A DNA stretch of 32,000 nt from Polyangiaceae bacterium. GTDB taxonomy: Bacteria; Myxococcota_A; Polyangia; Polyangiales; Polyangiaceae. The notes under the pieces are model-generated. The model did no database searches and was not told the DNA's origin. It was given only the letters and a program-made list of their open reading frames with translations. This document shows, in pieces, positions 2,145-14,999 of the stretch (position 1 is the stretch's first letter; the number at the start of each line of letters is the position of its first letter). A program made the translations under genes and the position numbers. The stretch covers positions 194,175-226,174 of the forward strand of contig JBNKYC010000014.1 in the NCBI GenBank assembly GCA_050300635.1, read 5' to 3'.

Positions 2145-2163
2145 TAGAATAACATAAAGAATC

Positions 2164-2197
2164 AACCGGTTGCGGCACTCGCCTCAGCCGGTTTTTT
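2164..2197 (+). terminator. Hairpin plus T-run (terminator-like)
   Basis: AACCGG-18 nt-CCGGTT followed by TTTTT. It abuts the integrase stop codon. Confidence 0.45.
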
Positions 2198-3507: not shown

Positions 3508-3805
3508 CGGGGACTCCTTCAGTTGAAGGCGCACCCGGACGATCCGAGTACAGGTTACCACCGGCACTTCCCGTCAAGAACCGGTCGAGTTCGGCACGCT
3601 CGAATACATGGGTCCCGCGTCCGCCGCGCCGCCCCGCTGCAGCGAGACGCCCCTCCTTCAGGGCCTTCCGGATGGCCCCTGTTGTCCTGAACCCACAATA
3701 CGCAGCAGCCTCCCTCGTCGTGAGGAAAGGCGAGCGAACCGCACCTCCGGCTTCAACCGAACGATGCTGCGCTAGTGGATTTTCGCGGCGTGCCATTGCT
3801 CCCAA
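3200..3805 (-). CDS. xis: Excisionase-family HTH protein (only the N-terminal ~75 aa are recognisable)
   Basis: FLTTREAAAYCGFRTTGAIRKALKEGRL...HVFERAELDRFL resembles excisionase/MerR-type HTH domains. The frame then stays open for about 300 nt across the int start, so the true 3' end and extent are uncertain. Confidence 0.5.
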   Translation of the reverse strand: MGAMARRENPLAQHRSVEAGGAVRSPFLTTREAAAYCGFRTTGAIRKALKEGRLAAAGRRGGRGTHVFERAELDRFLTGSAGGNLYSDRPGAPSTEGVPDGQEEVQETRNQLGEADSPARRIREERRRLRRARPSERFDDREAARDQKGSRRGNGEVSLRVVGGRESSTPVTNRIGPHSEAALRRLRGVLAGEKDPDERHS

Positions 3806-3998
3806 TTATCTGAGAAGCACCGAACCAATTGACAGTCCTTTCCGCACGCTCGCAACGGATACAGCCGGCACTTTAGGGTGCAGTATGAGAACGAGAGCCC
3901 AAAAGAGCTGCCCTCAACACGACCCCCGGAGGGGCTGTTAACTACCGGCTAACCTATCTCATCCACTACTTCTACTAATAGCGGAGTTGCGATTGTTC

Positions 3999-4943
3999 TT
4001 AGCTCAGCAAATAGAACGGCACATCTCCGATGGCGATCTTACTTTGCGTGAGGCGGGAGGGATCGCGGCGGAGGAACTCAGGAACTTCGACGGTTCGCTC
4101 GAAGCTCAATCGACGAGGTAGCGATTCATAGAGCGACCTCGGCGGAGGGTCGTTCTGCATTTCTTTGAATCGCAGGCCGCTGGCGAATGTGTGCATGAAG
4201 ATCTTCTTCAATCCGATATCGCTACGAATGAACTGAATCGTCGCGGCGAGCATCGCTTCGGACCACATCCGTGCGTATGGCTGAAAGAGCTTGGCGTACC
4301 AAAGCAGGTGAGCCCGAGTTACGCCCTCGTGCACATGGCCTGAGCCAACCCAGAGCTTCCCGCTACGGCTTCGCCAGGGGTCCTCGGTCTCGACAGCCTC
4401 CCTCACCTCTTTCGCCCAGTCTGATTGGATCTCTTCGATCAGGGCTTCCCCGGTATCGAGGTCGAAATCGATTCGCGCCCAGGCCAGGGTGCTTCCCTCC
4501 CTAGAGTTGGGATGACAGGACCAAGTAAAGAGTGGTTCTTGGGGCCTAAGCAGTCTTCGATACTCGTGCAGGTGTTCCGCGCCGAGGTTCAGTTGGAGAA
4601 CCAGATTGTAGCCTTTTCGCGAGGTTTGCCCCCACGGCTCTCCAGAAGCGCCGCCGTTCCACGACGTCACGCGCAGGCGGAAGTACTTCGTGCCAGAGGG
4701 ACGAAGTAGCTCGAAGGCCGCTGGCCGCACGACCCCATCTGGGACGGTGCGGAGGAACTGGCGAACAGCCGGCGCCTGAAGCAAACGACCGGCACCAGCA
4801 GCGCGGAGCGCTGACACTTTCTGAGGCTCCTTGCCCACCACCTCTTTCAAACGATGGAGGGCAAACATCCCCGGTGCGTACGAAAACACGCGCTTCTCAT
4901 CTTTGAGGCACTCAAGCGCCTCCCTTATCTGCTGCTTGTCCAC
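3999..4943 (-). CDS. Hypothetical protein (314 aa), no family recognised
   Basis: Long ORF with plausible composition. It sits between xis and the SPFH gene. Confidence 0.5.
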   Translation of the reverse strand: MDKQQIREALECLKDEKRVFSYAPGMFALHRLKEVVGKEPQKVSALRAAGAGRLLQAPAVRQFLRTVPDGVVRPAAFELLRPSGTKYFRLRVTSWNGGASGEPWGQTSRKGYNLVLQLNLGAEHLHEYRRLLRPQEPLFTWSCHPNSREGSTLAWARIDFDLDTGEALIEEIQSDWAKEVREAVETEDPWRSRSGKLWVGSGHVHEGVTRAHLLWYAKLFQPYARMWSEAMLAATIQFIRSDIGLKKIFMHTFASGLRFKEMQNDPPPRSLYESLPRRLSFERTVEVPEFLRRDPSRLTQSKIAIGDVPFYLLS

Positions 4944-5007
4944 AAACGCCTCCCTGAGGCGAAGTGGGGCAGCGTCGCGTCACGAAGAACGATGACGCCG
5001 CCCCTTC

Positions 5008-6123
5008 TTACTTCTGATTGACAGCCCCAGATCCCAGGAACTGCGCTGGCACCAAGGAAGAAAGTCCATCGGCACCGACCACCACTCGGACTTCGGCGAT
5101 GTTCTCGGCGATTTCCTTCATGGCTTCGAGCTCCTTGAGACGGAGCAGGACTGGTTCGGCCGCCATGACCTTGGCCGTGTTGGCGAGAGACCGCGTTGCG
5201 GCCGTCTCTTCACGACGGAGAATCACGTTGGCCTGTGCTTCCTTCTCCGCCTCAATGACGCGGTTCAGAAGCACCTTCATTTCACCGGGGAGGACAACGT
5301 CCTTCACACCGATGTGCTCGACGCGAACACCAATGCCCTCAGCAACAGGCAGAACCTGGGCGATCATTGCACGGGTGAGGGCGTCTCGCCCCTCGAGCAG
5401 TGCATCGAGGGTCACGCCAGCGACATAGTCACGGGCTGCCAGCTGTGCAGCAACGTAGACCGAGTCACGAACACTGGTCACCCGGCGGCTCAGGGCAACA
5501 TCCTCGACTGCGTACTCAACAGAAATGCTGAGGCGCAGCGTGACCTTGTCCCGAGTCATGAGTTCCTGACCGGTAATCGCAAGCTCCGTTCGGCGAACAT
5601 CGACCTTGTCGATGACCACCGGACGGTCGACCGTGTTCCAGAACCGGTAGAGACCTGGTTCGAGAACGCGCTCGAGCTTTCCGCTCACCTTCAGAACCCC
5701 ACGTTCGTGCGGCTGAATCGTTGCTTGAGTGTACTGGCCGGTAGGAACCACCCCTTCGAGCTCTGCGGTCAGAGCAGGAAAGTCAGCGCGCGTGTCGAAC
5801 ACTTCGACGCGAACTGAAGGGTCCATCGTCCAAAATCGCGTCACTCCAGAACGGAGAAACTTGACCGGACGCCCTCCAGCAAACAGCACGGCTCGCTCGT
5901 GGTCGGCAACCTGAACCTCAGCGTACCAATCGGAAGGCAGCACAGCTGCGACCTCTGGGTAGGCATCAAAGATCAGCTCGTCGGCCTTGAAGCGCTGCTC
6001 AGAATAACCGCGTCCCCAAAGGGTGTGGCGACCTGGTCCGAGGGCACGCACGGGCAGACTGTTCTTGAACAGCACGACTCGCTCGTTCAGCTTGACTCGT
6101 AGCGTCTTGTATATTCCAAACAT
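5008..6123 (-). CDS. SPFH/band-7 (slipin-like) domain protein
   Basis: The C-terminal half has a typical SPFH signature (VRVEHIGVKDVVLPGEMKVLLNRVIEAEKEAQANVILRREETAATRSLANTAKVM). Confidence 0.75.
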   Translation of the reverse strand: MFGIYKTLRVKLNERVVLFKNSLPVRALGPGRHTLWGRGYSEQRFKADELIFDAYPEVAAVLPSDWYAEVQVADHERAVLFAGGRPVKFLRSGVTRFWTMDPSVRVEVFDTRADFPALTAELEGVVPTGQYTQATIQPHERGVLKVSGKLERVLEPGLYRFWNTVDRPVVIDKVDVRRTELAITGQELMTRDKVTLRLSISVEYAVEDVALSRRVTSVRDSVYVAAQLAARDYVAGVTLDALLEGRDALTRAMIAQVLPVAEGIGVRVEHIGVKDVVLPGEMKVLLNRVIEAEKEAQANVILRREETAATRSLANTAKVMAAEPVLLRLKELEAMKEIAENIAEVRVVVGADGLSSLVPAQFLGSGAVNQK

Positions 6124-6552
6124 GATTCCGATCTCCTTTCATCGAGATTTCTGAGGCAAAGTTCTTGCTTCGAGAGAATGAGCCTCGCGGTCCATTTCGC
6201 CGCCGAGGCCCCAGGCGACGACCTCCACAAGGAGTCGCGCCGTAAAAGTGGAACTCATTCATCTGACGTGGGGAGCGACACGGGCGAACCCGCTGGGCTC
6301 CGCCGCACCGTGTGGACTCGACGGACTCAGGCCCCGAAAGGCCTTCGCTCGCCTGTCGTTCGGGCCGTGCGGGGAGTCGCCTGCCGGGCTGGTCCGAGAG
6401 CGCCTCATTGAGTGAGGCGTCTGTCAGAAAGCTGGGCAGTCGAGTCCGTCGCGGGCGCGAAAGGAGTCGACGTGAGTGCGGAGCAAGGCGAGCGCTCCCC
6501 TCCCCCGTGGGAAGTTGGCGCGCCTCGCCGACGCTGGATGTTTGAGTTCCTG

Positions 6553-6643
6553 GTTTGGGTAATTTCGCTACCTAAAAGCGTTGCCTTTCGGCACAAGGTT
6601 AAAAGCCTTGTTCTCATGTTCTGACCAACTGAACTACAGCCCC
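6553..6643 (-). pseudogene. Decayed tRNA-Lys(UUU)-like element
   Basis: On the minus strand the 5' half is canonical (GGGGCTG TA GTTC AGTTGGTCA GAAC). The anticodon arm is CAAGG-CTTTTAA-CCTTG. Six extra nt precede the anticodon stem, the T loop is GCGAAAT, and only 4 of 7 acceptor pairs form. Confidence 0.3.
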
Positions 6644-6646
6644 TAG

Positions 6647-6728
6647 TGGAACTGACCGGAATCGAACCGGTGACCGTGAGAGTCTGGTGGACGATACGTT
6701 CGCCTAACGGTGACCACACCATCGCTCC
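6647..6728 (-). other. tRNA-like element with a good T arm but no canonical anticodon arm
   Basis: The T arm is ACCGG-TTCGATT-CCGGT. The acceptor pairs at 5 of 7 positions (GGAGCGA/CAGTTCC). I could not fold the interior as a cloverleaf. Confidence 0.25.
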
Positions 6729-6799
6729 TCAGGACACGAACCACGGACACACAAGGGAGACTGCAAAGAGACCCAAGCGCGCGCCGTCGCACTGACTAA

Positions 6800-6878
6800 A
6801 GAGACGAGAGGGAGTCGAACCCTCTACCCGGAAAGCCCGCCCCAGTCCGATTTGCGGTCGGACCAAGGCGGGCTGGAC
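6800..6878 (-). other. tRNA-like element directly downstream of the HNH gene
   Basis: The T arm is GAGGG-TTCGACT-CCCTC. A long hairpin AGCCCGCC..GTCCGA-CCGCAAA-TCGGAC..GGCGGGCT carries a GCA-containing 7-nt loop. No partner for the acceptor 5' strand was found. Confidence 0.3.
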
Positions 6879-7397
6879 TCAGATCATTCCGTAGGCTTCC
6901 AAGTACGGAAGCCATTCTTCCGGGACGCGGCCGCGGCGCGCGTCGACCATCCCAATCGGGAGGGCCTTGGGCCGCACTGGCTCCATCAGCGGGAACATCC
7001 CCGCTTCGTCACAGCTCAGATTGGCCTTCTTGTTGTTGCAACGCTGACACGCAGCAACGATGTTCTCGAACGTTCGAGGCCCGCCGTGACTCCGAGGAAC
7101 CACATGGTCCATCGTGAGATCACTTCCGGGCAGATGAGCTCCGCAGTACTGGCAGCGGAACTTATCGCGGATCTTCACATTGTGGTCCGAGTACTTGATC
7201 CCCTTCTTGAAACGGGGAGTCATGTGCCGCAGGCGAATGACGGCAGGCACGTTCCAGGTCACGGACGGGGAAGAGACCGTCTCTGAATACTCAGCAATGA
7301 CATCGACCGTTTCCTCGTAGGTCATCTTGATTGCGGCCTGCCAAGGAACCACCTTTATCGGGAAGTACCAGGCCGTGAGGAGCAGTGAATTTCGCAT
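6879..7397 (-). CDS. HNH endonuclease (small McrA/COG1403-like)
   Basis: The motif reads CQYCG...LTMDHVVPRSHGGPRTFENIVAACQRCNNKKAN. The start is set at MRNSLLL, with AAGGAGG upstream. The track's longer N-terminus runs into a non-coding repeat. Confidence 0.8.
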   Translation of the reverse strand: MRNSLLLTAWYFPIKVVPWQAAIKMTYEETVDVIAEYSETVSSPSVTWNVPAVIRLRHMTPRFKKGIKYSDHNVKIRDKFRCQYCGAHLPGSDLTMDHVVPRSHGGPRTFENIVAACQRCNNKKANLSCDEAGMFPLMEPVRPKALPIGMVDARRGRVPEEWLPYLEAYGMI

Positions 7398-7432
7398 CAC
7401 GGCCTCCTTTCCTTTGTTGGTGCGATTGACTG

Positions 7433-7560
7433 TTTCTTTCAGGAGGGCAGAGGCCCTCCTCGTCGCGGGAAGTGAATCCCGGCTCCTCACCTCCACCCAA
7501 GCGACGTGCGCTCCGGCGCCTCCCACTTGGTCGGCGGCGGTACTCGCGCTCTCGTCCCGG
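7433..7560 (-). repeat. Copy 1 of a ~125-bp repeated non-coding element (leader-like, ends ~36 nt before the HNH start)
   Basis: About 88% identical to 8692-8818. Minus-strand hairpins GGAGGGC-CTCT-GCCCTCC and CGGGA-TTCACT-TCCCG are present. Confidence 0.7.
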
Positions 7561-7739
7561 CGCTACCGAGCCTCGTCCTGCCGGTCGCGGAAGACGGGCC
7601 CCGACGCTCCCCGGGCGGAAGGGCGCAGGAAACCACCGGCGACTAAGTAGGAGCCGCTGGATTTCCAGCGGAAGGTGGGGAGGAGAAGCGGAGATTCACT
7701 CTCCGCGACGGAGGGGACGCCGTCCCCTCAAAAAACGAG

Positions 7740-7813
7740 TAGAGCACATGGGAGTTGAACCCATCGCAGGTCCCTTATCAGGAGACCCAGATCAAACCGG
7801 ATCGTCGTGCTCA
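7740..7813 (-). tRNA. tRNA-Ile(GAU)
   Basis: Anticodon arm GTCTC-CTGATAA-GGGAC, T arm ATGGG-TTCAACT-CCCAT. The acceptor forms 6 bp with a U1-U72 mismatch. No CCA is encoded. Confidence 0.65.
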
Positions 7814-7814
7814 G

Positions 7815-7962
7815 TGCTGTCGGCGGGAGTCGTGGCCGAGCCCCGCTAGGGGCGAGCCCCACCGAGATAGTGCGATCGAAGAACGCACTATCGAAGGTCA
7901 CCCGCAATGCCGTGCGGCACGCCGTCTCAGGGCGCTGTGTATGCCTGTTCCACCACGACAGC
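7815..7962 (-). tRNA. tRNA-Leu(GAG)-like, abnormally long (148 nt)
   Basis: Perfect 7-bp acceptor GCTGTCG/CGACAGC with A73. Anticodon arm GCGCC-CTGAGAC-GGCGT and a type II variable arm CCGCA-CGGCAT-TGCGG. About 75 extra nt of hairpins precede the 3' strand, including the motif CTCGGCCACGACTCC. Confidence 0.45.
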
Positions 7963-7963
7963 G

Positions 7964-8081
7964 TGGTACACGCCCTCGGATTCGTGGCCGAGGACGTAGT
8001 CCGAGTCCCGCCGAGCGAAGCGACGGCCACCAGACTTCCCGGGCTTAAACCGGGCACCTCTACCGATTGGGTTAGGCGTGC
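7964..8081 (-). tRNA. tRNA-Leu(UAA), long (118 nt), CCA encoded
   Basis: Acceptor GCACGCC/GGCGTGT followed by ACCA. Anticodon arm CCCGG-TTTAAGC-CCGGG. The variable region is 45 nt and the T arm is CTCGG-CCACGAAT-CCGAG with an 8-nt loop. Confidence 0.55.
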
Positions 8082-8085
8082 CGAG

Positions 8086-8167
8086 CGGAAGGTAGAGAAA
8101 TCGAACCACGCACCTCTCGGTGCCCCTGGTTTTCAAAACCAGTTCGCCTCCATAGGCGGTACCTTCC
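8086..8167 (-). tRNA. tRNA-Ser(UGA)
   Basis: Perfect acceptor GGAAGGT/ACCTTCC with G73. Anticodon arm CTGGT-TTTGAAA-ACCAG and variable arm GCACC-GAGA-GGTGC. The T stem has two mismatches. Confidence 0.6.
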
Positions 8168-8169
8168 GG

Positions 8170-8241
8170 ATGAGGTGACAGGAATTGAACCCGCATCGCC
8201 GGGTTCAAAGCCCAGGGTCTTGACCGTTAGACGACACCTCA
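8170..8241 (-). tRNA. tRNA-Gln(UUG)
   Basis: Perfect acceptor TGAGGTG/CACCTCA, D arm GTCT-AACGGTCA-AGAC, anticodon arm CTGGG-CTTTGAA-CCCGG, T arm GCGGG-TTCAATT-CCTGT. Confidence 0.8.
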
Positions 8242-8394
8242 GAAGTTTTCTTCGCTGCGCAGGCAGCGACGCGCTCAGCACCGCCGACGAGCAAGCCCCA
8301 TTGCGAGTCGCCGGAGCGCCCGCGGAGTTGGGGGGAGGCTCACGCAGCGCTCTGCGCAGAGTGAGGGGGGCTGCATCAGCCCCCGATGAAACAG

Positions 8395-8463
8395 TCGCGA
8401 CGGAAGTATTCGAAACTTCATGCGAGCCCGTATGAAAGGCTGCTCCGACCCTCGGTCGCCGCG
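8395..8463 (-). tRNA. tRNA-Met(CAU), short (69 nt) with a reduced D arm
   Basis: Acceptor CGCGGCG/CGTCGCG, anticodon arm AGCCT-TTCATAC-GGGCT, T arm GAAGT-TTCGAAT-ACTTC. The D region is only CCGA-GGG-TCGG plus a 3-nt connector. A competing 10-bp hairpin lies at 8447-8477. Confidence 0.5.
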
Positions 8464-8540
8464 GTTGCGAGGGTCGGTAATGCTCCGATCTGATCTCCGG
8501 GCCATGAACCCGACGAGCCACTTTTGCTCCATCCTCGCGG

Positions 8541-8613
8541 CGTTTCGGCCAGGACTCGAACCTGAATTTCAGCCTTCGCAGGGCTGCGTCCTGTCCAGTT
8601 GGACGACCAGAAC
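8541..8613 (-). tRNA. tRNA-Arg(GCG)
   Basis: D arm GTCC-AACTGGACA-GGAC, anticodon arm CAGCC-CTGCGAA-GGCTG, T arm TCAGG-TTCGAGT-CCTGG. The acceptor has one mismatch. Confidence 0.75.
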
Positions 8614-8618
8614 AATCG

Positions 8619-8691
8619 CGTTCTCGGCAGGAGTCGAACCTGCACCCATCCGCTTAGAAGGCGGCTGCCCGTCCAATCGAGCCTCGAGAAC
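8619..8691 (-). tRNA. tRNA-Arg(UCU)
   Basis: Perfect acceptor GTTCTCG/CGAGAAC, anticodon loop CTTCTAA, T arm GCAGG-TTCGACT-CCTGC. Confidence 0.8.
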
Positions 8692-8818
8692 TTGTCTTTT
8701 CAGGAGGGCAGAGGCCCTCCTCGTCGTCGGGAGTGAATCCCGACTCCTCACCTCCACCCCTGCGACGTGCGCTCCGGCACCTCCCACTTGGTCGGTGGCG
8801 GTGCTGGCGCTCTCATCA
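8692..8818 (-). repeat. Copy 2 of the ~125-bp repeated element (its end abuts the 5' end of tRNA-Arg(UCU))
   Basis: It aligns with 7433-7560. The internal hairpin is TCGGGA-TTCAC-TCCCGA, with changes at the stem ends that extend the pairing relative to copy 1. Confidence 0.7.
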
Positions 8819-8932
8819 TCGCTTCGCGGTGCTTCGTCCTGGCGGGCGCCGGGCATAAGGGCAGGCCGCAGAACCCGTGAGGGTTCGAGGACCTCGACAA
8901 AAGTTACGGCACGCAGCACACCCGTGGAGGAG

Positions 8933-8983
8933 AGCCGAAGAGGTTTCGCCCTCACTTGTGATGGGGCGGAAACTCGTAGGCCT
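8933..8983 (-). repeat. Copy A of a ~50-nt conserved motif
   Basis: GCCGAAGAGGTTTCGCCCTCACTTGTGATGGGGCGGAAACTCGTAGGCC, compared with 10740-10789. Confidence 0.6.
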
Positions 8984-9058
8984 CCCCCACGGGCAAGCAG
9001 AGTGAAGCGCCATCGTGCACAGTTCGTCGATAAAGGCCGACGGACACGCTGCGCTCGG

Positions 9059-9126
9059 AGATCCGAGTGAGAGTCAAACTCACCCTCGCTGCTTTGCAAC
9101 CAGCGTCGTCCTCGGGACATCGGATC
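9059..9126 (-). tRNA. Short (68 nt) tRNA with a GCA-containing anticodon loop (Cys-like; identity ambiguous)
   Basis: Perfect acceptor GATCCGA/TCGGATC, D region GTCC-CGA-GGAC, anticodon stem CGCTG/CAGCG with the 9-nt loop GTTGCAAAG, a 3-nt variable region, and T arm GTGAG-TTTGACT-CTCAC. Confidence 0.45.
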
Positions 9127-9131
9127 ATTCG

Positions 9132-9203
9132 TACAAGTGGAGGGAATCGAACCCCCGTATCCTGGGTGGAAGCCAGGCATCTTGGCCGCTGGATCACACT
9201 TGC
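9132..9203 (-). tRNA. tRNA-Gly(UCC)
   Basis: Acceptor GCAAGTG/CACTTGT, anticodon arm CCTGG-CTTCCAC-CCAGG, T arm GGGGG-TTCGATT-CCCTC. Confidence 0.75.
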
Positions 9204-9204
9204 T

Positions 9205-9280
9205 TGGAGCCTCTATCGGGATTCAAACCCGAGTCTCTGCCTTACCGGGGCAGCGTTCTGCTCGACTGAACTATGGAGGC
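9205..9280 (-). tRNA. tRNA-Thr(GGU), CCA encoded, C at position 33
   Basis: D arm GTTC-AGTCGAGCA-GAAC, anticodon arm CTGCC-CCGGTAA-GGCAG, T arm TCGGG-TTTGAAT-CCCGA, 3' end TAGAGGC-T-CCA. Confidence 0.7.
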
Positions 9281-9284
9281 ACGG

Positions 9285-9351
9285 AGCCTTATCCCGGAAT
9301 CGAACCGAGTCAGATTGAGTACGAAACAATCCACTTTCCAAAAGCTAAGAC
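9285..9351 (-). tRNA. tRNA-Thr(CGU), short (67 nt) with a reduced D arm
   Basis: Anticodon arm ATTGT-TTCGTAC-TCAAT with a U-U closing pair, T arm CTCGG-TTCGATT-CCGGG, D region CTTT-TGG-AAAG plus TGG. The acceptor pairs at 6 of 7 positions. Confidence 0.5.
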
Positions 9352-9360
9352 AGCACTTTG

Positions 9361-9433
9361 TACACGCTCCCAGATTCGAACTGGGACCTCTCGGGTCTGA
9401 GCCGAGCGCCTCTGCCAGTTGGGCTAAGCGTGC
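9361..9433 (-). tRNA. tRNA with Leu anticodon CAG but a type I (4-nt variable loop) body
   Basis: It folds as GCACGCT TA GCCC AACTGGCAG AGGC G CTCGG-CTCAGAC-CCGAG AGGT CCCAG-TTCGAAT-CTGGG AGCGTGT A. The 5' half is a close paralogue of the Leu(UAA) gene. Confidence 0.65.
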
Positions 9434-9435
9434 AT

Positions 9436-9507
9436 TGGTGGAGCCGTCGGGAATCCAACCCGCAAGCTCTCTGTGCAAGAGAGAGCCGTAGCGCACTACA
9501 CAACCCC
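9436..9507 (-). tRNA. tRNA-Cys(GCA), compact, CCA encoded
   Basis: Anticodon arm CTCTC-TTGCACA-GAGAG. The acceptor GGGGTTG/CGGCTCC has three G-U pairs. D region GTAG-TGCG-CTAC, 3-nt variable region, T loop TTGGATT. Confidence 0.55.
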
Positions 9508-9512
9508 ATCAG

Positions 9513-9578
9513 CAGACCCACAAGGAATCGAACCCTGTCGACAACGGATTTGGAGTCCGTCCGGCGGCCGTCCGATCC
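9513..9578 (-). tRNA. tRNA-Trp(CCA)-like, very short (66 nt)
   Basis: Anticodon arm ACGGA-CTCCAAA-TCCGT and T arm CAGGG-TTCGATT-CCTTG. Only 11 nt lie between the acceptor and the anticodon stem. The acceptor is weak, with three G-U pairs and one mismatch. Confidence 0.4.
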
Positions 9579-9583
9579 CAATC

Positions 9584-9621
9584 GTGCAATGCGAAACGGA
9601 CGCGAGTCCGTGAAGCTGCAC
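9584..9621. repeat. Left copy of a ~38-nt inverted repeat pair (partner at 11308-11346)
   Basis: The reverse complement GTGCAGCTTCACGGACTCGCGTCCGTTTCGCATTGCAC aligns with GTGCAGCTTCACGGACTAGCGTCCGTTCCGCTTTGTCAC. The first 17 nt are identical. Confidence 0.75.
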
Positions 9622-9636
9622 ATGCGATACTACTGA

Positions 9637-9704
9637 CTAAATAAAGGCGCGTCGCGTGTCCTGCGGTAGCAGGCCCCTTTCAATCGCACCGATCCGCGAC
9701 GCGC
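9637..9704 (-). terminator. Terminator-like structure just after tRNA-His
   Basis: On the minus strand a 10-bp stem GCGCGTCGCG/CGCGACGCGC encloses a CCTGC-TACC-GCAGG hairpin and is followed by CTTTATTT. The 38-nt loop is atypical for a terminator. Confidence 0.35.
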
Positions 9705-9705
9705 G

Positions 9706-9773
9706 GGGTGTTGCTGAGGATCGAACTCAATAACCCGGGTCACAACCGAGTTTGCCCCCAGGGCGACAACACC
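9706..9773 (-). tRNA. tRNA-His(GUG), short (68 nt) with a reduced D arm
   Basis: Perfect acceptor GGTGTTG/CAACACC with C73. Anticodon arm CTCGG-TTGTGAC-CCGGG, T arm TTGAG-TTCGATC-CTCAG, D region GCCC-TGG-GGGC plus AAA, 3-nt variable region. No G-1 is encoded. Confidence 0.55.
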
Positions 9774-9774
9774 A

Positions 9775-9861
9775 TGGCGGAAGCTGGACGAGTCGAACGT
9801 CATTCCTTTCGGAACGCACCGATTAGCAGTCGGGCCAAGCGCCACCGCCTGTTCAGCTTCC
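9775..9861 (-). tRNA. tRNA-Ser(GCU), CCA encoded
   Basis: Perfect acceptor GGAAGCT/AGCTTCC followed by GCCA. Anticodon loop CTGCTAA, variable arm TTCC-GAAA-GGAA, T loop TTCGACT. Confidence 0.7.
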
Positions 9862-9865
9862 GTAG

Positions 9866-9937
9866 TCGGAGACCTGGGGGTCGAACCCAGCAGCACACGG
9901 TCCCAAGCCGCGCGGCACACCCCGTGCCTTGACTCCG
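9866..9937 (-). tRNA. tRNA-Pro(UGG)
   Basis: C1-G72 and A73. Anticodon arm CGCGG-CTTGGGA-CCGTG, T arm CTGGG-TTCGACC-CCCAG, compact D arm GGCAC-GGGGT-GTGCC. Confidence 0.7.
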
Positions 9938-9942
9938 AATAG

Positions 9943-10015
9943 TGGATCCCCTCAGTTTCGAACTGAGCTCTCCTGTTCTTCAGACAGGCGCTTTCACCAG
10001 ATTAGCTTGAGATCC
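9943..10015 (-). tRNA. tRNA-Phe(GAA)
   Basis: It folds as GGATCTC AA GCTA ATCTGGTGA AAGC G CCTGT-CTGAAGA-ACAGG AGAG CTCAG-TTCGAAA-CTGAG GGGATCC A. Confidence 0.8.
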
Positions 10016-10019
10016 GTAG

Positions 10020-10092
10020 TACTCGGGGCCGGGAACGATCCAGCAACCGTCTCCTTGTAAGGGAGCTGCGCTACCAATTGCGCCACCCGAGC
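10020..10092 (-). tRNA. tRNA-Val(UAC) with an unusual T loop
   Basis: D arm GCGC-AATTGGTA-GCGC, anticodon loop CTTACAA, T arm GCTGG-ATCGTTC-CCGGC (A54/U58 in place of U54/A58), acceptor GCTCGGG/CCCGAGT. Confidence 0.7.
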
Positions 10093-10093
10093 T

Positions 10094-10169
10094 TGGCGCT
10101 TCGTACGGGAATCGAACCCGTCTCCAAGTGATCGACAATCACCCTGCCTCCCCAGCGGCATCACGAAGC
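10094..10169 (-). tRNA. tRNA-Asp(GUC), CCA encoded
   Basis: Perfect acceptor GCTTCGT/ACGAAGC followed by GCCA. D arm TGCC-GCTGGGGA-GGCA, anticodon loop TTGTCGA, T arm ACGGG-TTCGATT-CCCGT. Confidence 0.85.
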
Positions 10170-10173
10170 ATTC

Positions 10174-10311
10174 ACGCGCCGTAGGGTCACAGACCCGAAG
10201 GCCCGTAAGAAACATGGCGCGTAGCAATTCTGCCCACCAGACCGGAGTGTTCCGTCCTCACCCTTCCGGGGGGCGGAACACGCAGGTCAATGTGTGGCAA
10301 GCAGAATGCAG
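10174..10311 (-). other. Two stem-closed structured elements between tRNA-Asp and tRNA-Glu (not foldable as tRNAs)
   Basis: At 10174-10222 the ends ACGCGCC/GGCGCGT pair around GGCC-TTCG-GGTC and GGGTC-TGT-GACCC hairpins. At 10223-10311 the ends GCATTCTGC/GCAGAATTGC pair around an 8-bp GTGTTCCG/CGGAACAC hairpin. Confidence 0.3.
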
Positions 10312-10383
10312 CACCCCCTGTCGGTATCGATCCGACTCTTTCAGGTTGAAAACCTGACGACCTAGCCAGTAGTCGAAGGGGGC
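10312..10383 (-). tRNA. tRNA-Glu(UUC) with an unusual T loop
   Basis: It folds as GCCCCCT TC GACT ACTGGCTA GGTC G TCAGG-TTTTCAA-CCTGA AAGA GTCGG-ATCGATA-CCGAC AGGGGGT G. Confidence 0.75.
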
Positions 10384-10392
10384 ATAGTTGAC

Positions 10393-10461
10393 TCGCGTGG
10401 CTACGCGACCCGCCTTCGGCGGGCTCGTCGACCTTCATGGACTCCGTCCACCAAGGTGGAC
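10393..10461. other. Cluster of three GC-rich hairpins, including a tandem GTGGACGGAGTCCAC motif
   Basis: The hairpins are TCGCGT-GGCT-ACGCGA, CCCGCC-TTC-GGCGGG and GTCCAC-CAAG-GTGGAC. The 13-mer GGACTCCGTCCAC occurs twice (10439-10451 and 10458-10470). Confidence 0.5.
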
Positions 10462-10475
10462 TCCGTCCACTACGG

Positions 10476-10556
10476 TTCCGGGGGCAGGAATCGTGGCCGA
10501 GCGAAGCGAGCCCCGCCGAGCGGAGCGAAGGCCACCCGCACACGTCGGGCCCCAGG
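10476..10556 (-). other. tRNA-like element sharing the CTCGGCCACGATTCC motif of the long Leu genes
   Basis: Ends CCTGGGG/CCCCGGA pair at 6 of 7 positions, with a C1-A72 mismatch. It has a CCCG-ACGTGTG-CGGG hairpin and a GCGGG/CCTGC stem around an internal GTGGCC...GGCCAC hairpin. No D arm is present. Confidence 0.25.
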
Positions 10557-10562
10557 AGCTTG

Positions 10563-10634
10563 CTTCGGGGATAGGACTCGAACCTATATGAACTCGCTTA
10601 ACAGGCGAGTGCCTTACCAATCGGCCACCCCGAA
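10563..10634 (-). tRNA. tRNA-Asn(GUU)
   Basis: Perfect acceptor TTCGGGG/CCCCGAA with G73. Anticodon arm CTCGC-CTGTTAA-GCGAG, T arm ATAGG-TTCGAGT-CCTAT. Confidence 0.85.
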
Positions 10635-10739
10635 TCATCGCCACACCCTCCTCGGCTAATTGACTTCCAAGCGGCCGCAGGACCTTCGGGTCCGAGGACC
10701 AAAAGAAACAGTTGGCGGGAAGCACACTCAATCAAGAAG

Positions 10740-10789
10740 GCCGAAGAGTACCGCCCTCACTCTGTGATGGGGCGAGACTCGTAGGCCCG
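10740..10789 (-). repeat. Copy B of the ~50-nt conserved motif
   Basis: GCCGAAGAGTACCGCCCTCACTCTGTGATGGGGCGAGACTCGTAGGCC, compared with 8933-8983. Confidence 0.6.
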
Positions 10790-10891
10790 GATGTGGCGAG
10801 CAAAAAATTGCTGAGTATTCAGTTGTCACGGATCAGGAGGAGCGAATGCTCCTGTGACTTGCGAAACGAAGCGTTTCACCTCGTTTCGCAG

Positions 10892-10963
10892 TGGATCTGG
10901 AGGGACTCGAACCCTCGTCCAACCGGGTAAGAACCGGCGACTCTGCCGCTGAGTTACAGATCC
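10892..10963 (-). tRNA. tRNA-Lys(CUU)
   Basis: Perfect acceptor GGATCTG/CAGATCC, D arm ACTC-AGCGGCA-GAGT, anticodon arm GCCGG-TTCTTAC-CCGGT, T arm GAGGG-TTCGAGT-CCCTC. Confidence 0.85.
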
Positions 10964-10967
10964 AAGG

Positions 10968-11005
10968 CCCGGATGAGGTGCCTCCTTGTGTTCACCTCAT
11001 CCGGG
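10968..11005. other. 13-bp perfect hairpin between the two Lys tRNA genes
   Basis: CCCGGATGAGGTG-12 nt-CACCTCATCCGGG. Confidence 0.7.
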
Positions 11006-11036
11006 GAAACGACACTGGATGTGCCGTGGAATTGAG

Positions 11037-11109
11037 TGGGACCAGGGGGCTTCGAACCCCCACCCCCTCGATTAAAAGTCGAGTGCGCTACCAGTTACGC
11101 CACAGTCCC
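11037..11109 (-). tRNA. tRNA-Lys(UUU)
   Basis: It folds as GGGACTG TG GCGT AACTGGTA GCGC A CTCGA-CTTTTAA-TCGAG GGGGT GGGGG-TTCGAAG-CCCCC TGGTCCC A. Confidence 0.85.
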
Positions 11110-11196
11110 AAGTCCAAGCTTGTGACTGCGTTTCTTCATTCGATACATAGTTCTCTCCTGTTCGCGCTCGAGATCGAGCGCGCAATTCACCCTTCG

Positions 11197-11279
11197 TGGA
11201 GCCCCCGAGATTCGAACTCGGCAAGCGCGCTGCGCAGCGGGGTTACAATCCGCTTGAGGTCCCGAGCCTCATGAGCTCC
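11197..11279 (-). tRNA. tRNA-Tyr(GUA), type II
   Basis: Acceptor GGAGCTC/GGGCTCC with A73. D arm GAGG-CTCGGGA-CCTC, anticodon loop TTGTAAC, variable arm GCGC-AGC-GCGC, T arm CCGAG-TTCGAAT-CTCGG. Confidence 0.75.
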
Positions 11280-11346: not shown

Positions 11347-11657
11347 TCCAAATCGCTGAGGGCCGCCTTGGTTTCCCAGGGCGGCCCTTCTGCGACACGA
11401 ATGTCTCAGTGGAATGCCAGCCTAGGTATTCTCTCCCCAGGGAGAGCCCAAATCCGTAGCTAGGATGAAGCCCGTGGGCTGTTCACACGCGGACAGCGCC
11501 AATGCACCAACGAGATCCTTCTCGTTCAGATACGCTGCACCTAAATCAAGCGCAGTAGGCCGAAGCTCTGCTTGCGTACTTCTATGGTTCGTCGGTTTCG
11601 TCATCGAGCTTGTGCTCCTAGTTCGGACACCCTCATTGGCATCACGGCGGGGCACAA

Positions 11658-11673
11658 TGCGAGGGGCGTGCCA
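11658..11673 (-). promoter_or_regulatory. Candidate sigma54 (-24/-12) promoter pointing into the tRNA array
   Basis: The minus strand reads TTGGCACGCCCCTCGCATT, i.e. TGGCAC-N5-TCGCA. It lies between the rtcR stop (11755) and tRNA-Tyr (11279). Confidence 0.5.
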
Positions 11674-11727: not shown

Positions 11728-11743
11728 ATATCTGTACAGATAT
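11728..11743. promoter_or_regulatory. 16-bp perfect palindrome, candidate enhancer-binding (UAS) site
   Basis: ATATCT-GTAC-AGATAT, centred about 64 bp upstream of the -24 element at 11668-11673. It has the same half-site and spacer length as 13340-13355. Confidence 0.45.
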
Positions 11744-11754
11744 TTTTCTATCTC

Positions 11755-13338
11755 TTAGGATATGTCATCCCAGGACAGAGAGTATCGGTTCAAGTACTTC
11801 CGCACCCGGTCTGCGTCATTGACCGACGAACGCCTCTTTCGGGATTCGGCGAATAGAGTGCGGCCTGCCTCCGAAAGAGAGTTTGAGTCCACGCACACCC
11901 GCAGAACCTCGGCCAGCTGAACCCGGTCAAACAGATCAAGGTCGGCGATGACATCGGCTCCGAGGAACCGCGAGAGGATATCGTCCCCCTCCTCACCGCC
12001 TGGCCGCTCCCACGACTCTTTCAGGCGTTCGATCTCTTCCTTGACACCAGCCGCTGTGATCCTGCCCCCCTCTGCGAGGGTCGCCATGCGCTCAAAAGCG
12101 GCACTGTAGTCGCGAAAGTTGCCAGACCAGCTAGTGGACGGCGCCTTGGCAAAATCGAGAAATAGCTTACGGGCCTCACGGTTCATGGTGACGCGTTCGC
12201 CGTGCGTTTCTGCCCATCGCTCAGTTTCGTATTCGAGGTTGGGCTCCATATCCTCGGGCCTATCCCTCAGAGCGGGGAGATGGAACGCCCACAGATTGAT
12301 GCGAGCGAGAAGGTCATCGCGAAAAGTCCCCTGAGCCACAGAGCCGCGCAGATCGCGGTTGGTCCCGCTGATCAGCTGGAAGTCGCTCTCCGCCTCTCGA
12401 TCGGCGCCAACAGGAAGGAACCTCTTCTCCTCGATGGCGCGAAGGAGCATGGCCTGCTCCTCAAGTCCGAGCTCGCCAATTTCATCGAGAAAGAGGATGC
12501 CGCCGTTGGCCTCACGGAGGAGACCCTCACGTGGGCCTGACGCGCCAGTGAACGCGCCCTTCTTATGCCCAAAGAGGGCACTCATGGCGCCGTCGCCTCG
12601 GATAGTGGCACAGTTCACCTCGACAAAGGGCCCGGAAACCTGGCCGCGCAGCTTCTTTAGCTCATAGACCCGTCGCGCCAAATGGCTCTTGCCAGCGCCG
12701 GTCGGACCCATCAAGAGCAGGGGGGACTTCGATGCAATGGCGACCTGCTCGATGCGGTCGATTTGCTTGTTGAACGCCTTGTTCTTTGTAGCGATTCCTG
12801 ACTTGAGGAAGTCCCGGCTCTCCCGCTGCTCGAGTTTGAACCGAGACGCGAGCTTGTCGTACTTGGACAGGTCAAGATCGATGACGCTATAGGAGCCAAC
12901 ATTCCCCTTTTGCCGGGATGGACTCGTCTGAAGCAGCTGACCTGGGATGTGGCGAGACTCCGTCAGCAAGAACTGGCAAATCTGAGCTACGTGCGTCCCG
13001 GTCGTGATGTGGACAAGGTACCTTTCCTTGCTCTGCTTGAACGAGTACTTGGAGGCAAAGTCGTGGAGCGCTGCATAGACCTCCTCAAAGTCCCAGGGGT
13101 CGGTGGTCTCAAGGTGATGCGGACACACCTGGGTTTCGGGCGAGACGGAACGAATATCCTTTGTGATCTGCTCAGCCAGCTTCTCGAACTTCGACTGGTA
13201 CAGAAGCTCGAACCGGTCGACGACCAAGTCCTCGTGCCGACACACGTCAACGGTCGGACGCCACTGAAGCCAACGGTCGCCCCGCTTCTTCATGGCATCC
13301 AGAGTCACGCCCAACATCCCGATGACGACAGTTTTCAT
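11755..13338 (-). CDS. rtcR: Sigma54-dependent transcriptional activator RtcR (CARF-like N-domain, AAA+ domain, C-terminal DNA-binding region)
   Basis: Walker A LLMGPTGAGKSHLA and the GAFTGA motif (HKKGAFTGA). The N-terminal ~185 aa resemble the RtcR sensor domain. The gene is divergent from rtcBA. Confidence 0.85.
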   Translation of the reverse strand: MKTVVIGMLGVTLDAMKKRGDRWLQWRPTVDVCRHEDLVVDRFELLYQSKFEKLAEQITKDIRSVSPETQVCPHHLETTDPWDFEEVYAALHDFASKYSFKQSKERYLVHITTGTHVAQICQFLLTESRHIPGQLLQTSPSRQKGNVGSYSVIDLDLSKYDKLASRFKLEQRESRDFLKSGIATKNKAFNKQIDRIEQVAIASKSPLLLMGPTGAGKSHLARRVYELKKLRGQVSGPFVEVNCATIRGDGAMSALFGHKKGAFTGASGPREGLLREANGGILFLDEIGELGLEEQAMLLRAIEEKRFLPVGADREAESDFQLISGTNRDLRGSVAQGTFRDDLLARINLWAFHLPALRDRPEDMEPNLEYETERWAETHGERVTMNREARKLFLDFAKAPSTSWSGNFRDYSAAFERMATLAEGGRITAAGVKEEIERLKESWERPGGEEGDDILSRFLGADVIADLDLFDRVQLAEVLRVCVDSNSLSEAGRTLFAESRKRRSSVNDADRVRKYLNRYSLSWDDIS

Positions 13339-13339
13339 G

Positions 13340-13355
13340 TTATCCGTGAGGATAT
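13340..13355. promoter_or_regulatory. Dyad related to 11728-11743, candidate UAS
   Basis: TTATCC-GTGA-GGATAT, centred about 105 bp upstream of the rtcB -24 element. It directly abuts the rtcR start codon. Confidence 0.45.
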
Positions 13356-13450: not shown

Positions 13451-13466
13451 TGGCACAACGTCTGCA
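13451..13466 (+). promoter_or_regulatory. Sigma54 (-24/-12) promoter of the rtcBA operon
   Basis: TGGCAC-AACGT-CTGCA in the rtcR-rtcB intergenic region, oriented toward rtcB. Confidence 0.7.
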
Positions 13467-13609
13467 AAGTCTCGGTCACGCTTCTGAAGCTCAACGCGGC
13501 AGAGCACCGGAAAAACACAGGACAAGCCGGGCCTCGAAGGAGGCATGTGGAACCCAGGCGACTGGGGAGCGGCAACGGTTAACAGATTGCACCGAACAGG
13601 GTCCGAGAG

Positions 13610-13685
13610 GGTTCTGAAGGGAAGCAGGTTCCCGAAAGGCCGCCTCATCCACGTGGAGTGGGTTCGATCCCCACCAGAAGCACCA
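13610..13685 (+). ncRNA. tRNA-like element in the rtcB 5' leader (ends in ACCA; no anticodon stem)
   Basis: It folds as GGTTCTG AA GGGA-AGCAGGT-TCCC ... GTGGG-TTCGATC-CCCAC CAGAAGC A CCA. The 24 nt in the anticodon position (GAAAGGCCGCCTCATCCACGTGGA) form no 5-bp stem. A perfect alternative 5' strand GCTTCTG lies at 13483-13489 near the predicted TSS. Confidence 0.5.
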
Positions 13686-13723
13686 GCCATCAAGTTGATT
13701 GTCACTTAGACTGGAGAGAAGAA

Positions 13724-14947
13724 ATGAGTACCTACGAACTGCGCGAACCTCACGGCGGCGTTCCGATCAAGACCTGGACCAAGGGCGTGCCCGTGGAACC
13801 AGAGGCTGTTGATCAGCTCACCAACATCGCGCGCCTGCCCATCGTCCACAAGTGGGTCGCGGCCATGCCGGACGTTCACCTGGGGATCGGTGCGACCGTA
13901 GGCAGCGTTATCCCCACCGTGGGAGCGGTGATTCCTGCAGCAGTCGGCGTGGATATCGGCTGCGGAATGATGGCCGTGGAAACCACGCTGAAGGCCAGCG
14001 ATCTTCCAGATAACCTCGGCCCCATGCGAAGCACCATCGAACGAGCAGTCCCCCATGGGCGCGGACGGTCCGGGCGTCGCGGGGACAAAGGTTCTTGGAG
14101 CGACGTTCCGAACCGCGTCGGAAAGGTCTGGAAAGGGCTAGAATCTGGCTTCAAAGCCATCGTCGACAAGCATCCAGGCGTCGAGAAGAGCAACAATGTC
14201 GTTCATCTCGGGACGCTCGGAACCGGAAACCACTTCATCGAGGTTTGCCTCGATGAAAAGGACAACGTCTGGTTCATGCTGCACAGTGGCTCACGCGGAG
14301 TAGGAAACCGCATCGGTTCGCACTTCATCGCCCTGGCGAAGAAGGACATGCAGCGTCATCAACAGCATCTGCCCGACGCCAACCTTTCCTACTTTGAGGA
14401 AGGGAGCGAACACTTCCACGACTACGTGGAAGCCGTCGAGTGGGCGCAGAGCTTCGCGCGTCATAACCGAGAACTCATGATGCACGCTGTACTCGATTCG
14501 GTTCGCCGGTTGCCCAAGTTTCCGTCTTTCCAAACGGCAAAGAGCGCCGTCAACTGCCACCACAACTACGTTTCACGCGAGTTCCACTACGGAAAGAACG
14601 TGTTCGTGACCCGCAAGGGAGCTGTGCATGCAGGTGAAGGCGTCCTGGGCATCATCCCCGGAAGCATGGGAGCTCGCTCCTACATTGTCCGGGGAAAGGG
14701 AAACCCAGAAAGCTTCTGTAGCTGTAGTCACGGAGCGGGGCGCGTGATGTCCCGTACCAAGGCAAAGAAGAAGTTCTCCTTGGAGGACCATCGCCGAGCG
14801 ACTGAAGGCGTCGAATGCCGCAAGGACAAGGACGTCATCGACGAAACGCCTGGTGCCTACAAGGACATCGACAAGGTGATGGAGGCCCAGAGTGATCTGG
14901 TCGAAATCCTCCACACGCTCAAGCAGGTGGTCTGCGTGAAGGGGTGA
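13724..14947 (+). CDS. rtcB: RNA-splicing ligase RtcB (3'-phosphate/5'-hydroxyl RNA ligase)
   Basis: Typical RtcB sequence blocks (IARLPIVHKWVAAMPDVHLGIGATVGSV, GTLGTGNHFIEV, HSGSRGVGN, NCHHNY, SCSHGAGR). The start is set at MSTYELREP with GGAGAG upstream. The track's 13658 start overlaps the tRNA-like element. Confidence 0.92.
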   Translation: MSTYELREPHGGVPIKTWTKGVPVEPEAVDQLTNIARLPIVHKWVAAMPDVHLGIGATVGSVIPTVGAVIPAAVGVDIGCGMMAVETTLKASDLPDNLGPMRSTIERAVPHGRGRSGRRGDKGSWSDVPNRVGKVWKGLESGFKAIVDKHPGVEKSNNVVHLGTLGTGNHFIEVCLDEKDNVWFMLHSGSRGVGNRIGSHFIALAKKDMQRHQQHLPDANLSYFEEGSEHFHDYVEAVEWAQSFARHNRELMMHAVLDSVRRLPKFPSFQTAKSAVNCHHNYVSREFHYGKNVFVTRKGAVHAGEGVLGIIPGSMGARSYIVRGKGNPESFCSCSHGAGRVMSRTKAKKKFSLEDHRRATEGVECRKDKDVIDETPGAYKDIDKVMEAQSDLVEILHTLKQVVCVKG

Positions 14948-14999
14948 GCGGAGCTCGCCCCTTCACGGGGGGCCATCCTTTCAAGAAAGAGGCTTAGCA

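Follow-up and report, generated by a model that had tools for sequence, protein, structure and literature searches.

The role of long tRNA gene arrays in bacteria is uncertain, and the only experimental case, that of Anabaena, ties them to translational stress and to rtcB by way of a cyanobacterium-specific repressor. In Anabaena PCC 7120 the array (L-array) stays silent until translational stress induces it (Santamaria-Gomez et al. 2021, PMC8421152), and the L-array, rtcB, two HNH genes and slipin/Band-7 form one regulon under TrcR, considered 'equivalent to RtcR' (PMC10272220). In Salmonella, the rsr-yrlBA-rtcBA operon is under RtcR, the activation of which by cleaved tRNAs or tRNA fragments is established in this organism (Hughes et al. 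2020, PMC7790460). According to a secondary description, operons of RtcB, Band-7 and a 'b7a-tRNA' are also known, with YrlA beside Band-7 as an occasional variant. Phages use tRNA arrays to survive the anticodon nucleases of their hosts (van den Berg et al. 2023, PMC10264068; Azam et al. 2024, PMC11555353), and segB homing was reported beside the tRNA cluster of T4 (as cited in PMC8421152). Here we analyzed a 32-kb stretch of a Polyangiaceae bacterium (contig JBNKYC010000014.1 of assembly GCA_050300635.1, hereafter the window) in which 26 tRNA or tRNA-like genes are packed behind rtcR, together with related or other RtcR or array loci that were fetched for comparison (L002, L003 and so on). 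Judging from the sequence, the novelty of this locus is most likely that an L-type tRNA array has become part of the RtcR regulon of RNA repair.

The Polyangiaceae locus shares with the Anabaena array the roughly 26 co-oriented, tightly spaced and non-periodic tRNA genes, their supernumerary and horizontal character, the link with HNH endonucleases, the tie to rtcB and slipin/Band-7, and the presence of some aberrant members. It differs in being physically fused to the rtc locus and in having a myxobacterium as host; moreover, whereas TrcR is a repressor that acts with a sigma-70-type promoter and direct repeats, the Polyangiaceae array is apparently under the activator RtcR and sigma-54, its unit opens with a 60-aa open reading frame (ORF) and an invariant hairpin, and several of its tRNAs carry inserts in the T-loop. 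Salmonella has the same divergent rtcR, sigma-54 promoter, tRNA-like non-coding RNAs co-transcribed with repair genes and, as the assumed trigger, sensing of damaged tRNA, but none of the ORFs tested here was an Rsr/Ro60 gene, and a second RtcR-type promoter would drive true tRNA genes and not Y RNAs. As far as the secondary description goes, the b7a-tRNA operon likewise unites RtcB, Band-7 and tRNA-like genes in one neighbourhood, with a single predicted tRNA-like RNA where the Polyangiaceae locus has a near-complete set of 26 and a Y-RNA-like gene. Phage arrays are also compact, hold nearly one tRNA per amino acid together with a homing-type endonuclease, and have been proposed to replace cleaved tRNAs; in contrast to them, the array studied here is chromosomal, apparently under a host damage sensor, situated in a window without phage genes and unrelated in sequence beyond individual tRNAs.

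With default settings, ARAGORN called 20 tRNA genes, all within 7739–11279 of the minus strand and none elsewhere in the 32-kb window, and relaxed thresholds added three more (Met 8463–8539, Cys 9057–9126 and Ser-GCU 9775–9861). Two others, tRNA-Leu(UAA) at 7964–8082 and tRNA-Leu(GAG) at 7815–7962, were recognized by orthology, aligning base for base with intact L002 genes of 74 and 83 nt from which they differ solely by insertions of 44 and 67 nt, respectively. A reading of these long Leu genes as tRNAs with giant variable arms was rejected, the L002 alignments favouring inserts in the T-loop. A doubtful Trp-like element (9515–9577) brings the total to 26 co-oriented genes, which span 3541 nt (58% tRNA) with gaps of 0–5 nt in most runs. 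A previous reading based on the sequence only had also arrived at 26 minus-strand tRNA genes, and its count and strand were upheld, the Trp-like element being its one questionable member; the spacing of 1–5 nt that it gave for neighbours (including 7813/7815, 7962/7964, 9203/9205 and 10092/10094) and its five CCA-encoding genes were reproduced as well, the remaining 21 genes being without CCA. It erred in extending the tRNA stretch down to 6553, as 6553–7738 has no tRNA genes and is taken up by an HNH ORF (6879–7397), terminator-like hairpins (6800–6875) and a Y-RNA-like RNA (~6566–6738). It had furthermore listed a second tRNA-Cys, no tRNA-Ala and 19 amino acids; the gene in question (9436–9507) is actually tRNA-Ala(UGC), with a 7-nt loop CUUGCAC, G3:U70, A73 and CCA (ARAGORN structure, acceptor end aligned), and thus all 20 amino acids are nominally covered.

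Some further features of the array can be noted. In this array and those of L002 and L009, Leu(CAG), Leu(UAA) and Leu(CAA) genes (window 9360–9433, L002 6686–6759, L009 6602–6837) have a short variable region (74–76 nt) and retain A73, while the usual bacterial tRNA-Leu has a long variable arm. The only long repeat within the array is a 152-nt direct pair (D1; 7437–7588 and 8698–8849, minus strand, 85% identical) that flanks an eight-tRNA segment from Arg-UCU to Ile. It occurs once in L002 and partly before HNH in L003, ends in a hairpin with compensatory changes, and may be a cassette boundary mark or a structured RNA. A spacer hairpin motif (..CCGCCCC..loop..GTGAGG(A/G)CGG..) recurs on the minus strand at ~8930–8990, 10200–10285 and 10730–10790, with one copy kept in L003 at 89% identity.

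The covariance-model check of the 26 genes succeeded only in part: the RF00005 gathering score (29 bits) was reached by 12 of them (49–64 bits), one further gene obtained 23 bits, and the remaining ones were detected by ARAGORN or orthology only. By this threshold, about half of the set is non-canonical. His, Pro, Ser-GCU and Ala were missed even when the search was confined to 531 nt; their L004 orthologues have canonical D-arms, which indicates that the copies of the window and L002 are derived. In addition, the Met gene has a degenerate T-loop, two Leu genes are interrupted, and the Trp-like element (63 nt) has a weak acceptor stem and no D-arm, with tRNA-Sec as its sole covariance-model match (21 bits, E 0.1). 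In order to look for compensatory changes, the Phe, Pro, Ser-GCU and His genes were compared over the window, L002 and L004. Standard pairs were found in 93% of cells (window/L002 vs. L004), and both sides had changed in 21 of 85 pairs, compared with 1–4 in controls slid by 1–3 columns and with 0 of 500 shuffles matching the observed value; as two of the three sequences are near-identical, each pair represents one divergence event. These compensatory changes indicate that the cloverleaves are maintained by selection.

As many array members are aberrant, a role as decoy or ligand source has to be treated as a serious variant, in which the RNAs would act mainly outside translation, either as decoys or sponges for anticodon nucleases or as a renewable source of nicked-tRNA ligand that keeps RtcR on. 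The inserts in the T-loops of Tyr, Lys and two Leu genes, which would disrupt the elbow, are in line with such a role, as are the YrlA-like RNA with a Lys-UUU-like hairpin and the tRNA-like rtcB leader encoded alongside, and a sponge role has been proposed for both the Anabaena array and YrlA (PMC8421152, PMC7790460). The array nevertheless resembles a decoding set, with a tRNA for each of the 20 amino acids and intact anticodon loops (mostly U34 or G34, one or two isoacceptors per amino acid); as read from the sequence, identity elements are retained (G3:U70 and A73 in Ala, G73 in Asp, possibly G-1/C73 in His), and at least 12 members score as ordinary tRNAs, so that an action mainly outside translation appears rather improbable. 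The same nominal cover of 20 amino acids with little redundancy might suggest a core tRNA operon of the organism. This can practically be dismissed, since close relatives lack the array or have a smaller one at this locus, half of its genes in the window fail RF00005 and two are interrupted, and the anticodon list contains no reader for several codons expected to be common at 60% G+C, e.g., CGG. Based on the relatives, and not on its own genome, we infer that the array does not hold the sole genomic copies of these isoacceptors.

The gene content (rtcR, rtcB, rtcA and RlaP) identifies the surroundings of the array as an RNA-repair locus (Table 1). The rtcR gene lies immediately ahead of the array and in the same orientation, and its product shows 94%, 91% and 91% identity to RtcR proteins from uncultured Polyangiaceae and related metagenome-assembled genomes; rtcB and rtcA are divergent from rtcR, with two RlaP genes beyond. 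Two sigma-54 promoters can be recognized. The one of the array unit is situated past the rtcR stop codon and ahead of the first tRNA. Its sequence, TTGGCAC-N5-TCGCA, does not vary among the window, L002, L003 and L004, and the promoter is also present in L174–L179; the one of rtcBA is the only match with two mismatches and an intact TGGCAC. Both are preceded by the palindrome TATC-N6-GATA, exact copies of which occur three times in the 32 kb, two at the array promoter and one at the rtcB promoter. At 11729–11762 it is invariant in the alignment of the window, L002, L003 and L004, and the array promoter has two copies in the window and in L002, L174 and L176, compared with a single one in L003, L004 and L177–L179. 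Of 77 RtcR loci drawn from Proteobacteria, Planctomycetota, Myxococcota and others, 47 have an exact TATC-N6-GATA within the 50 nt that precede rtcR, the background frequency being 0.066 per kb, and from this conservation it is very probably the operator that RtcR would bind. It is thus probable that the array is co-regulated with rtcBA through a common operator and sigma-54.

Table 1 Features of the tRNA array and of the surrounding Rtc locus in the window
Feature	Position	Strand	Evidence or remarks
Array, 26 tRNA or tRNA-like genes	7739–11279	-	ARAGORN, Rfam, orthology; compensatory changes vs. L004
Array order, part 1			Tyr-GUA, Lys-UUU, Lys-CUU, Asn, Glu-UUC, Asp, Val-UAC, Phe, Pro-UGG, Ser-GCU, His, Trp-like, Ala-UGC
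Array order, part 2			Leu-CAG, Thr-CGU, Thr-GGU, Gly-UCC, Cys, Arg-UCU, Arg-GCG, Met, Gln-UUG, Ser-UGA, Leu-UAA (T-loop insert), Leu-GAG (T-loop insert), Ile-GAU
Sigma-54 promoter (-24/-12) of the array unit, TGGCACGCCCCTCGCA	11658–11673	-	1 mismatch, best consensus match in the window
Two TATC-N6-GATA palindromes, candidate RtcR upstream activating sequence	11729–11762		56–89 nt upstream of the array promoter
60-aa ORF, first gene of the unit	11422–11604	-	Gene call; frame and stop kept in the window, L002, L003 and L004
Invariant leader with hairpin GGGCCGCC-N12-GGCGGCCC (hairpin 11360–11387)	11359–11421	-	Just before the first tRNA
67-nt hairpin insert, same T-loop position of tRNA-Leu(GAG)	7833–7899	-	Absent in the L002 orthologue
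44-nt hairpin insert, T-loop of tRNA-Leu(UAA), between T54 and C56	7985–8028	-	Absent in the otherwise identical L002 gene
Third member of this insert family, located in a piece of a T-arm that lies between the Asn and Glu genes	10494–10533	-	Repeat families D7 and D10
HNH endonuclease, 172 aa, last gene of the array unit	6879–7397	-	Pfam HNH 1.7e−16
Two hairpins after HNH, neither a tRNA	6800–6875	-	First GC-rich with TTT (terminator-like), second with a T-arm-like loop
Y-RNA-like (YrlA-type) RNA	6566–6738	-	Past the HNH terminator and ahead of Band-7; Rfam YrlA 32.6 bits, E 3e−4
Band-7/SPFH protein	5008–6123	-	Downstream of the Y-RNA-like gene; Pfam Band_7 2.9e−24
rtcR, sigma-54 enhancer-binding activator with RtcR/CARF sensor domain	11755–13338	-	Pfam RtcR 1.7e−81, Sigma54_activat 1.1e−48
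TATC-N6-GATA palindrome before the rtcBA promoter	13341–13354		~100 nt upstream of the promoter; invariant in 7 loci
Sigma-54 promoter of rtcBA, TGGCACAACGTCTGCA	13451–13466	+	2 mismatches, second best in the window
tRNA-like leader of rtcBA	13481–13695	+	Acceptor stem, D-arm, T-arm, ACCA; ~150-nt domain instead of the anticodon arm
rtcB (RNA ligase) and rtcA (RNA 3'-phosphate cyclase)	13724–16028	+	Pfam RtcB 2.4e−130, RTC 3.8e−78
Two RlaP nucleotidyltransferase genes (RNA-ligase-associated Pol-beta family)	17763–19741	-	Pfam RlaP 2.3e−43 and 7e−17

The 60-aa ORF has eight homologues of 54–60 aa, all in a narrow clade, and no family in Pfam, NCBIfam or PADLOC. The leader that follows it (11359–11421) is fully kept across four loci with coding DNA of ~80% identity, as well as in L174–L179. 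Found via the 60-aa ORF, these six further short contigs contain the promoter, the ORF, the hairpin leader and, though not as an exact copy in L175, the palindrome, and the Tyr and Lys genes come after the leader where the contigs are long enough. The leader hairpin, which is GC-rich, is a possible attenuator or processing signal; that it forms together with the 60-aa ORF a translation-coupled attenuator sensing tRNA shortage is pure speculation.

The array varies strongly among relatives that have the same rtcR and HNH flanks: about 24 tRNAs are present in L002, about 7 and truncated remnants in L004, and about 2 (the two Lys genes) in L003, a 2.86-Mb contig with rtcR upstream and HNH downstream as in the window, while the more distant L005–L007 have no tRNAs at this position. 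Between the window and L002, tRNA positions are 96.2% and spacers 92.9% identical, whereas the identity at four-fold degenerate sites is 36% in rtcR, ~40% in RlaP, 55% in rtcB, 63% in Band-7 and 69% in HNH. This difference (93–96% vs. 36–69%) points to a recent horizontal exchange between well-diverged genomes, which would fit homing or recombination via the conserved flanks, and it also means that the high spacer identity is unreadable as functional constraint. With its 26 co-oriented, close and non-periodic tRNA genes (L-arrays having at least 20), its patchy and horizontal distribution in the same-locus comparison of relatives, and its HNH and RNA-processing neighbours (rtcB, rtcA and RlaP within 10 kb), we are confident that the array is an accessory L-array.

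The sequence-only reading had compared the set to the accessory tRNA arrays of phages and mobile elements and not to a core operon. Its accessory and mobile side is borne out by the variable arrays of the relatives, the identity contrast and the HNH, integrase and transposase genes nearby, but the phage side is not. Cargo of a prophage or integrative element, supplying tRNAs fitted to the codon usage of the element, would be in agreement with a tyrosine integrase (2197–3567) and a Y2-type (IS91-like) transposase fragment (526–1398) on the minus strand ~4–7 kb past the array, and with HNH homologues in viral tRNA arrays. Against this stand the ORF family searches, in which no phage structural or conjugation genes were detected in the window, the uniform G+C content across it, and L002, where the array lies between rtcR and RlaP without an integrase; moreover, phage and plasmid collections queried with the array by megablast and blastn yielded nothing or single-tRNA matches only, leaving a phage or plasmid origin unsupported. 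Such cargo is therefore a very unlikely explanation. The accessory reading was also incomplete, as the array is integrated in the Rtc RNA-repair locus, where it apparently forms a second RtcR/sigma-54 unit. As a side observation, the NCBI contig with the integrase and transposase genes ends near window position 2063.

The main rival to a function in the Rtc response is a selfish, hitch-hiking L-array that spread with the help of HNH, landed by chance behind a promoter that originally served RlaP, and is tolerated because it is normally silent, with no benefit for the host. In the more distant relative L006, the sigma-54 promoter past rtcR drives the RlaP genes directly, and the order in L002 is promoter, array, HNH, Band-7 and RlaP, so the array looks inserted into a pre-existing second RtcR unit. 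The HNH gene embedded in the unit, the erosion of arrays (truncated Tyr and Lys genes in L004 and L174, about 2 tRNAs left in L003) and the near-identity to L002 despite saturated flanks, which fits recent spread, are also compatible with a selfish element. However, tRNA and Band-7 modules are found independently in Rtc operons of another phylum: in L017 (a Sedimentisphaerales chromosome, 696–10000) a run of 4 tRNAs, Band-7, 5 tRNAs, rtcA, rtcB, a PcfJ-like gene and a gene for a PrfH-like release factor comes after a sigma-54 promoter that points away from rtcR. The same gene set is one regulon in Anabaena, additional palindromes are kept at the array promoter (one or two in each of the nine loci listed above), and the compensatory evolution of the stems speaks for long-term selection. 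We thus consider a purely selfish array unlikely. By our tally, an ARAGORN tRNA or tRNA-like call heads the divergent operon in ~17 of 60 RtcR loci; like L017 and the tRNA-like rtcB leader of the window, these loci speak independently for a functional connection of tRNAs with Rtc.

Altogether, we lean towards a horizontally exchanged L-array that was built into the Polyangiaceae Rtc locus as a damage-inducible unit of spare tRNAs. What the sequences show directly is the genes themselves, the selection on the cloverleaves, the architecture and conservation of promoters and operators, and the variability and exchange of the array. In this model, cutting of tRNAs by anticodon nucleases or other ribotoxins would produce nicked tRNAs with 2',3'-cyclic phosphate that activate RtcR via its CARF domain, and RtcR bound to TATC-N6-GATA would fire two sigma-54 promoters. 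From the first, the tRNA-like leader, rtcB and rtcA would be transcribed for RNA repair; the second, past the rtcR stop, would yield the 60-aa ORF, ~26 tRNAs for 20 amino acids and the HNH endonuclease. Binding by RtcR, induction by tRNA damage, and the processing, charging and use of the tRNAs are steps that we infer: after processing and CCA addition, the spare tRNAs would refill the damaged pool or act as nuclease decoys, and HNH together with the homologous flanks would shift the cassette between lineages. Several points weigh against this interpretation. Given the L006 promoter that drives RlaP directly, the array may just have been inserted behind a promoter that was already there; TATC-N6-GATA is only a candidate RtcR site; the invariant hairpin after the 60-aa ORF might terminate transcription ahead of the tRNAs; and the high spacer identity to L002 could result from recent transfer and not from function. 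About half of the genes fail the general tRNA model (with the degenerate T-loop of Met, the missing D-arm of the Trp-like element and two interrupted genes), and part of the tRNA set may be non-functional or unused in translation. Finally, the organism is known from metagenome assemblies only.

Inserts related to those of the two Leu genes were found in Lys-UUU of L003 (~13686–13730) and L174 and in Tyr of L176 and L179, while the same Tyr and Lys-UUU genes are intact in the window, L175 and L178. They are 34–67 nt long and GC-rich, always lie between T54 and C56 where they replace U55, start with G(A/G)CC(T/G)TCG and finish with (C)GGC(C)A/G. By pairing, the two ends form an uninterrupted stem that begins at U54 and has no 3-nt bulges. 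A regex search of 2.2 Mb of fetched loci found no insert copy outside tRNA genes and no further convincing copies, and a literature search returned no relevant description of T-loop inserts or introns in bacterial tRNA. The inserts behave like a small site-specific mobile element. Archaeal non-canonical tRNA introns are short, of variable length and located at a fixed non-anticodon position. The T-loop inserts share these properties and are found near an RtcB gene, but they lack a bulge-helix-bulge and, like mobile DNA, they are present or absent among near-identical genes. They could alternatively be RNA-level intervening sequences, cut by an endonuclease that leaves 2',3'-cyclic phosphate and 5'-OH ends and rejoined by the co-regulated RtcB. 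Since there is no bulge-helix-bulge motif at the insert junctions and clean removal would leave a 6-nt T-loop, this is highly improbable, and no splicing-endonuclease Pfam match was found among the window ORFs. If true, such splicing would be a bacterial counterpart of the enzymatic tRNA splicing of archaea and eukaryotes and would provide a physiological substrate for bacterial RtcB. The hairpin inserts, which target the tRNA T-loop, form a previously undescribed family.

Two other tRNA-like RNAs are encoded beside the array. The one at 6566–6738 has, in this order, a T-arm (ACCGG TTCGATT CCGGT), a loop-closed acceptor stem, UA, a D-arm (GTTC AGTTGGTCA GAAC) and an anticodon-like hairpin, the loop of which (CUUUUAA) resembles the anticodon loop of Lys-UUU, and a predicted stem of the 5' and 3' ends encloses the whole. 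In L002, its acceptor hairpin is wholly different in sequence and pairing is retained. The structural hallmarks of YrlA (T-arm, closed acceptor stem, UA linker, D-arm with GG, end stem) are thus all present; the match to RF02553 covers model positions 23–87 only, and its 32.6 bits lie below the gathering score of 69. No TROVE (Ro60/rsr) match was detected among the 25 window ORFs scanned, and Band-7 adjoins instead. This RNA can be described as similar to the YrlA type and as no more than a candidate member of the family. Relaxed ARAGORN calls of a 'tRNA-Thr' at 6646–6728 and an intron-containing 'tRNA-Pro' at 6799–7002 were rejected, because L002 has the supposed acceptor strand swapped for sequence that pairs only as a local hairpin. 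The second RNA heads rtcBA, with an acceptor stem GCTTCTG/CAGAAGC and a T-arm GTGGG-TTCGATC-CCCAC. Compensatory changes were observed in its acceptor and T stems (L002, L005), a compact form exists in L004, and no Rfam family matches it. The rtcBA transcript seems to begin with this tRNA-like RNA.

On the array strand, rtcR and the array are followed by HNH, Band-7/SPFH, a 314-aa ORF, the integrase and the Y2 transposase. The array unit itself ends past HNH with the GC-rich hairpin and TTT; the L003 equivalent of the two hairpins has no T-loop sequence. Assembly GCA_050300095.1 encodes a protein with 100% identity to the HNH endonuclease of the window, and homologues with 35–40% identity are situated inside tRNA arrays of some metagenomic and viral contigs. 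Scans of metagenome and viral data with HNH recovered relatives of 31–61% identity only, with the exception of one 2.5-kb contig (L091). About a dozen of these 89 relatives are located in tRNA arrays, and homologues at 60–71% identity stand alone, a distribution which makes HNH no specific marker of the array system. No match in Pfam, NCBIfam or PADLOC was obtained for the 314-aa ORF (3999–4943) or for those of 361 aa (16071–17156) and 236 aa (20076–20786). Further away, a 469-aa protein (21448–22857, plus strand) matches PDC-S46, a candidate defence family of PADLOC (E 4.6e−161), and has a TetR regulator and a Ser/Thr kinase as neighbours.

In this locus the array, HNH, Band-7 and RtcB module is physically joined and apparently under RtcR, a widespread sensor of damaged tRNA, and TATC-N6-GATA, as a candidate RtcR operator kept across phyla, might be a universal one. 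If the proposed model is true, spare tRNAs would be made while tRNAs are being cut, and the response against ribotoxins would combine repair by RtcB, RtcA and RlaP with replacement by the array.

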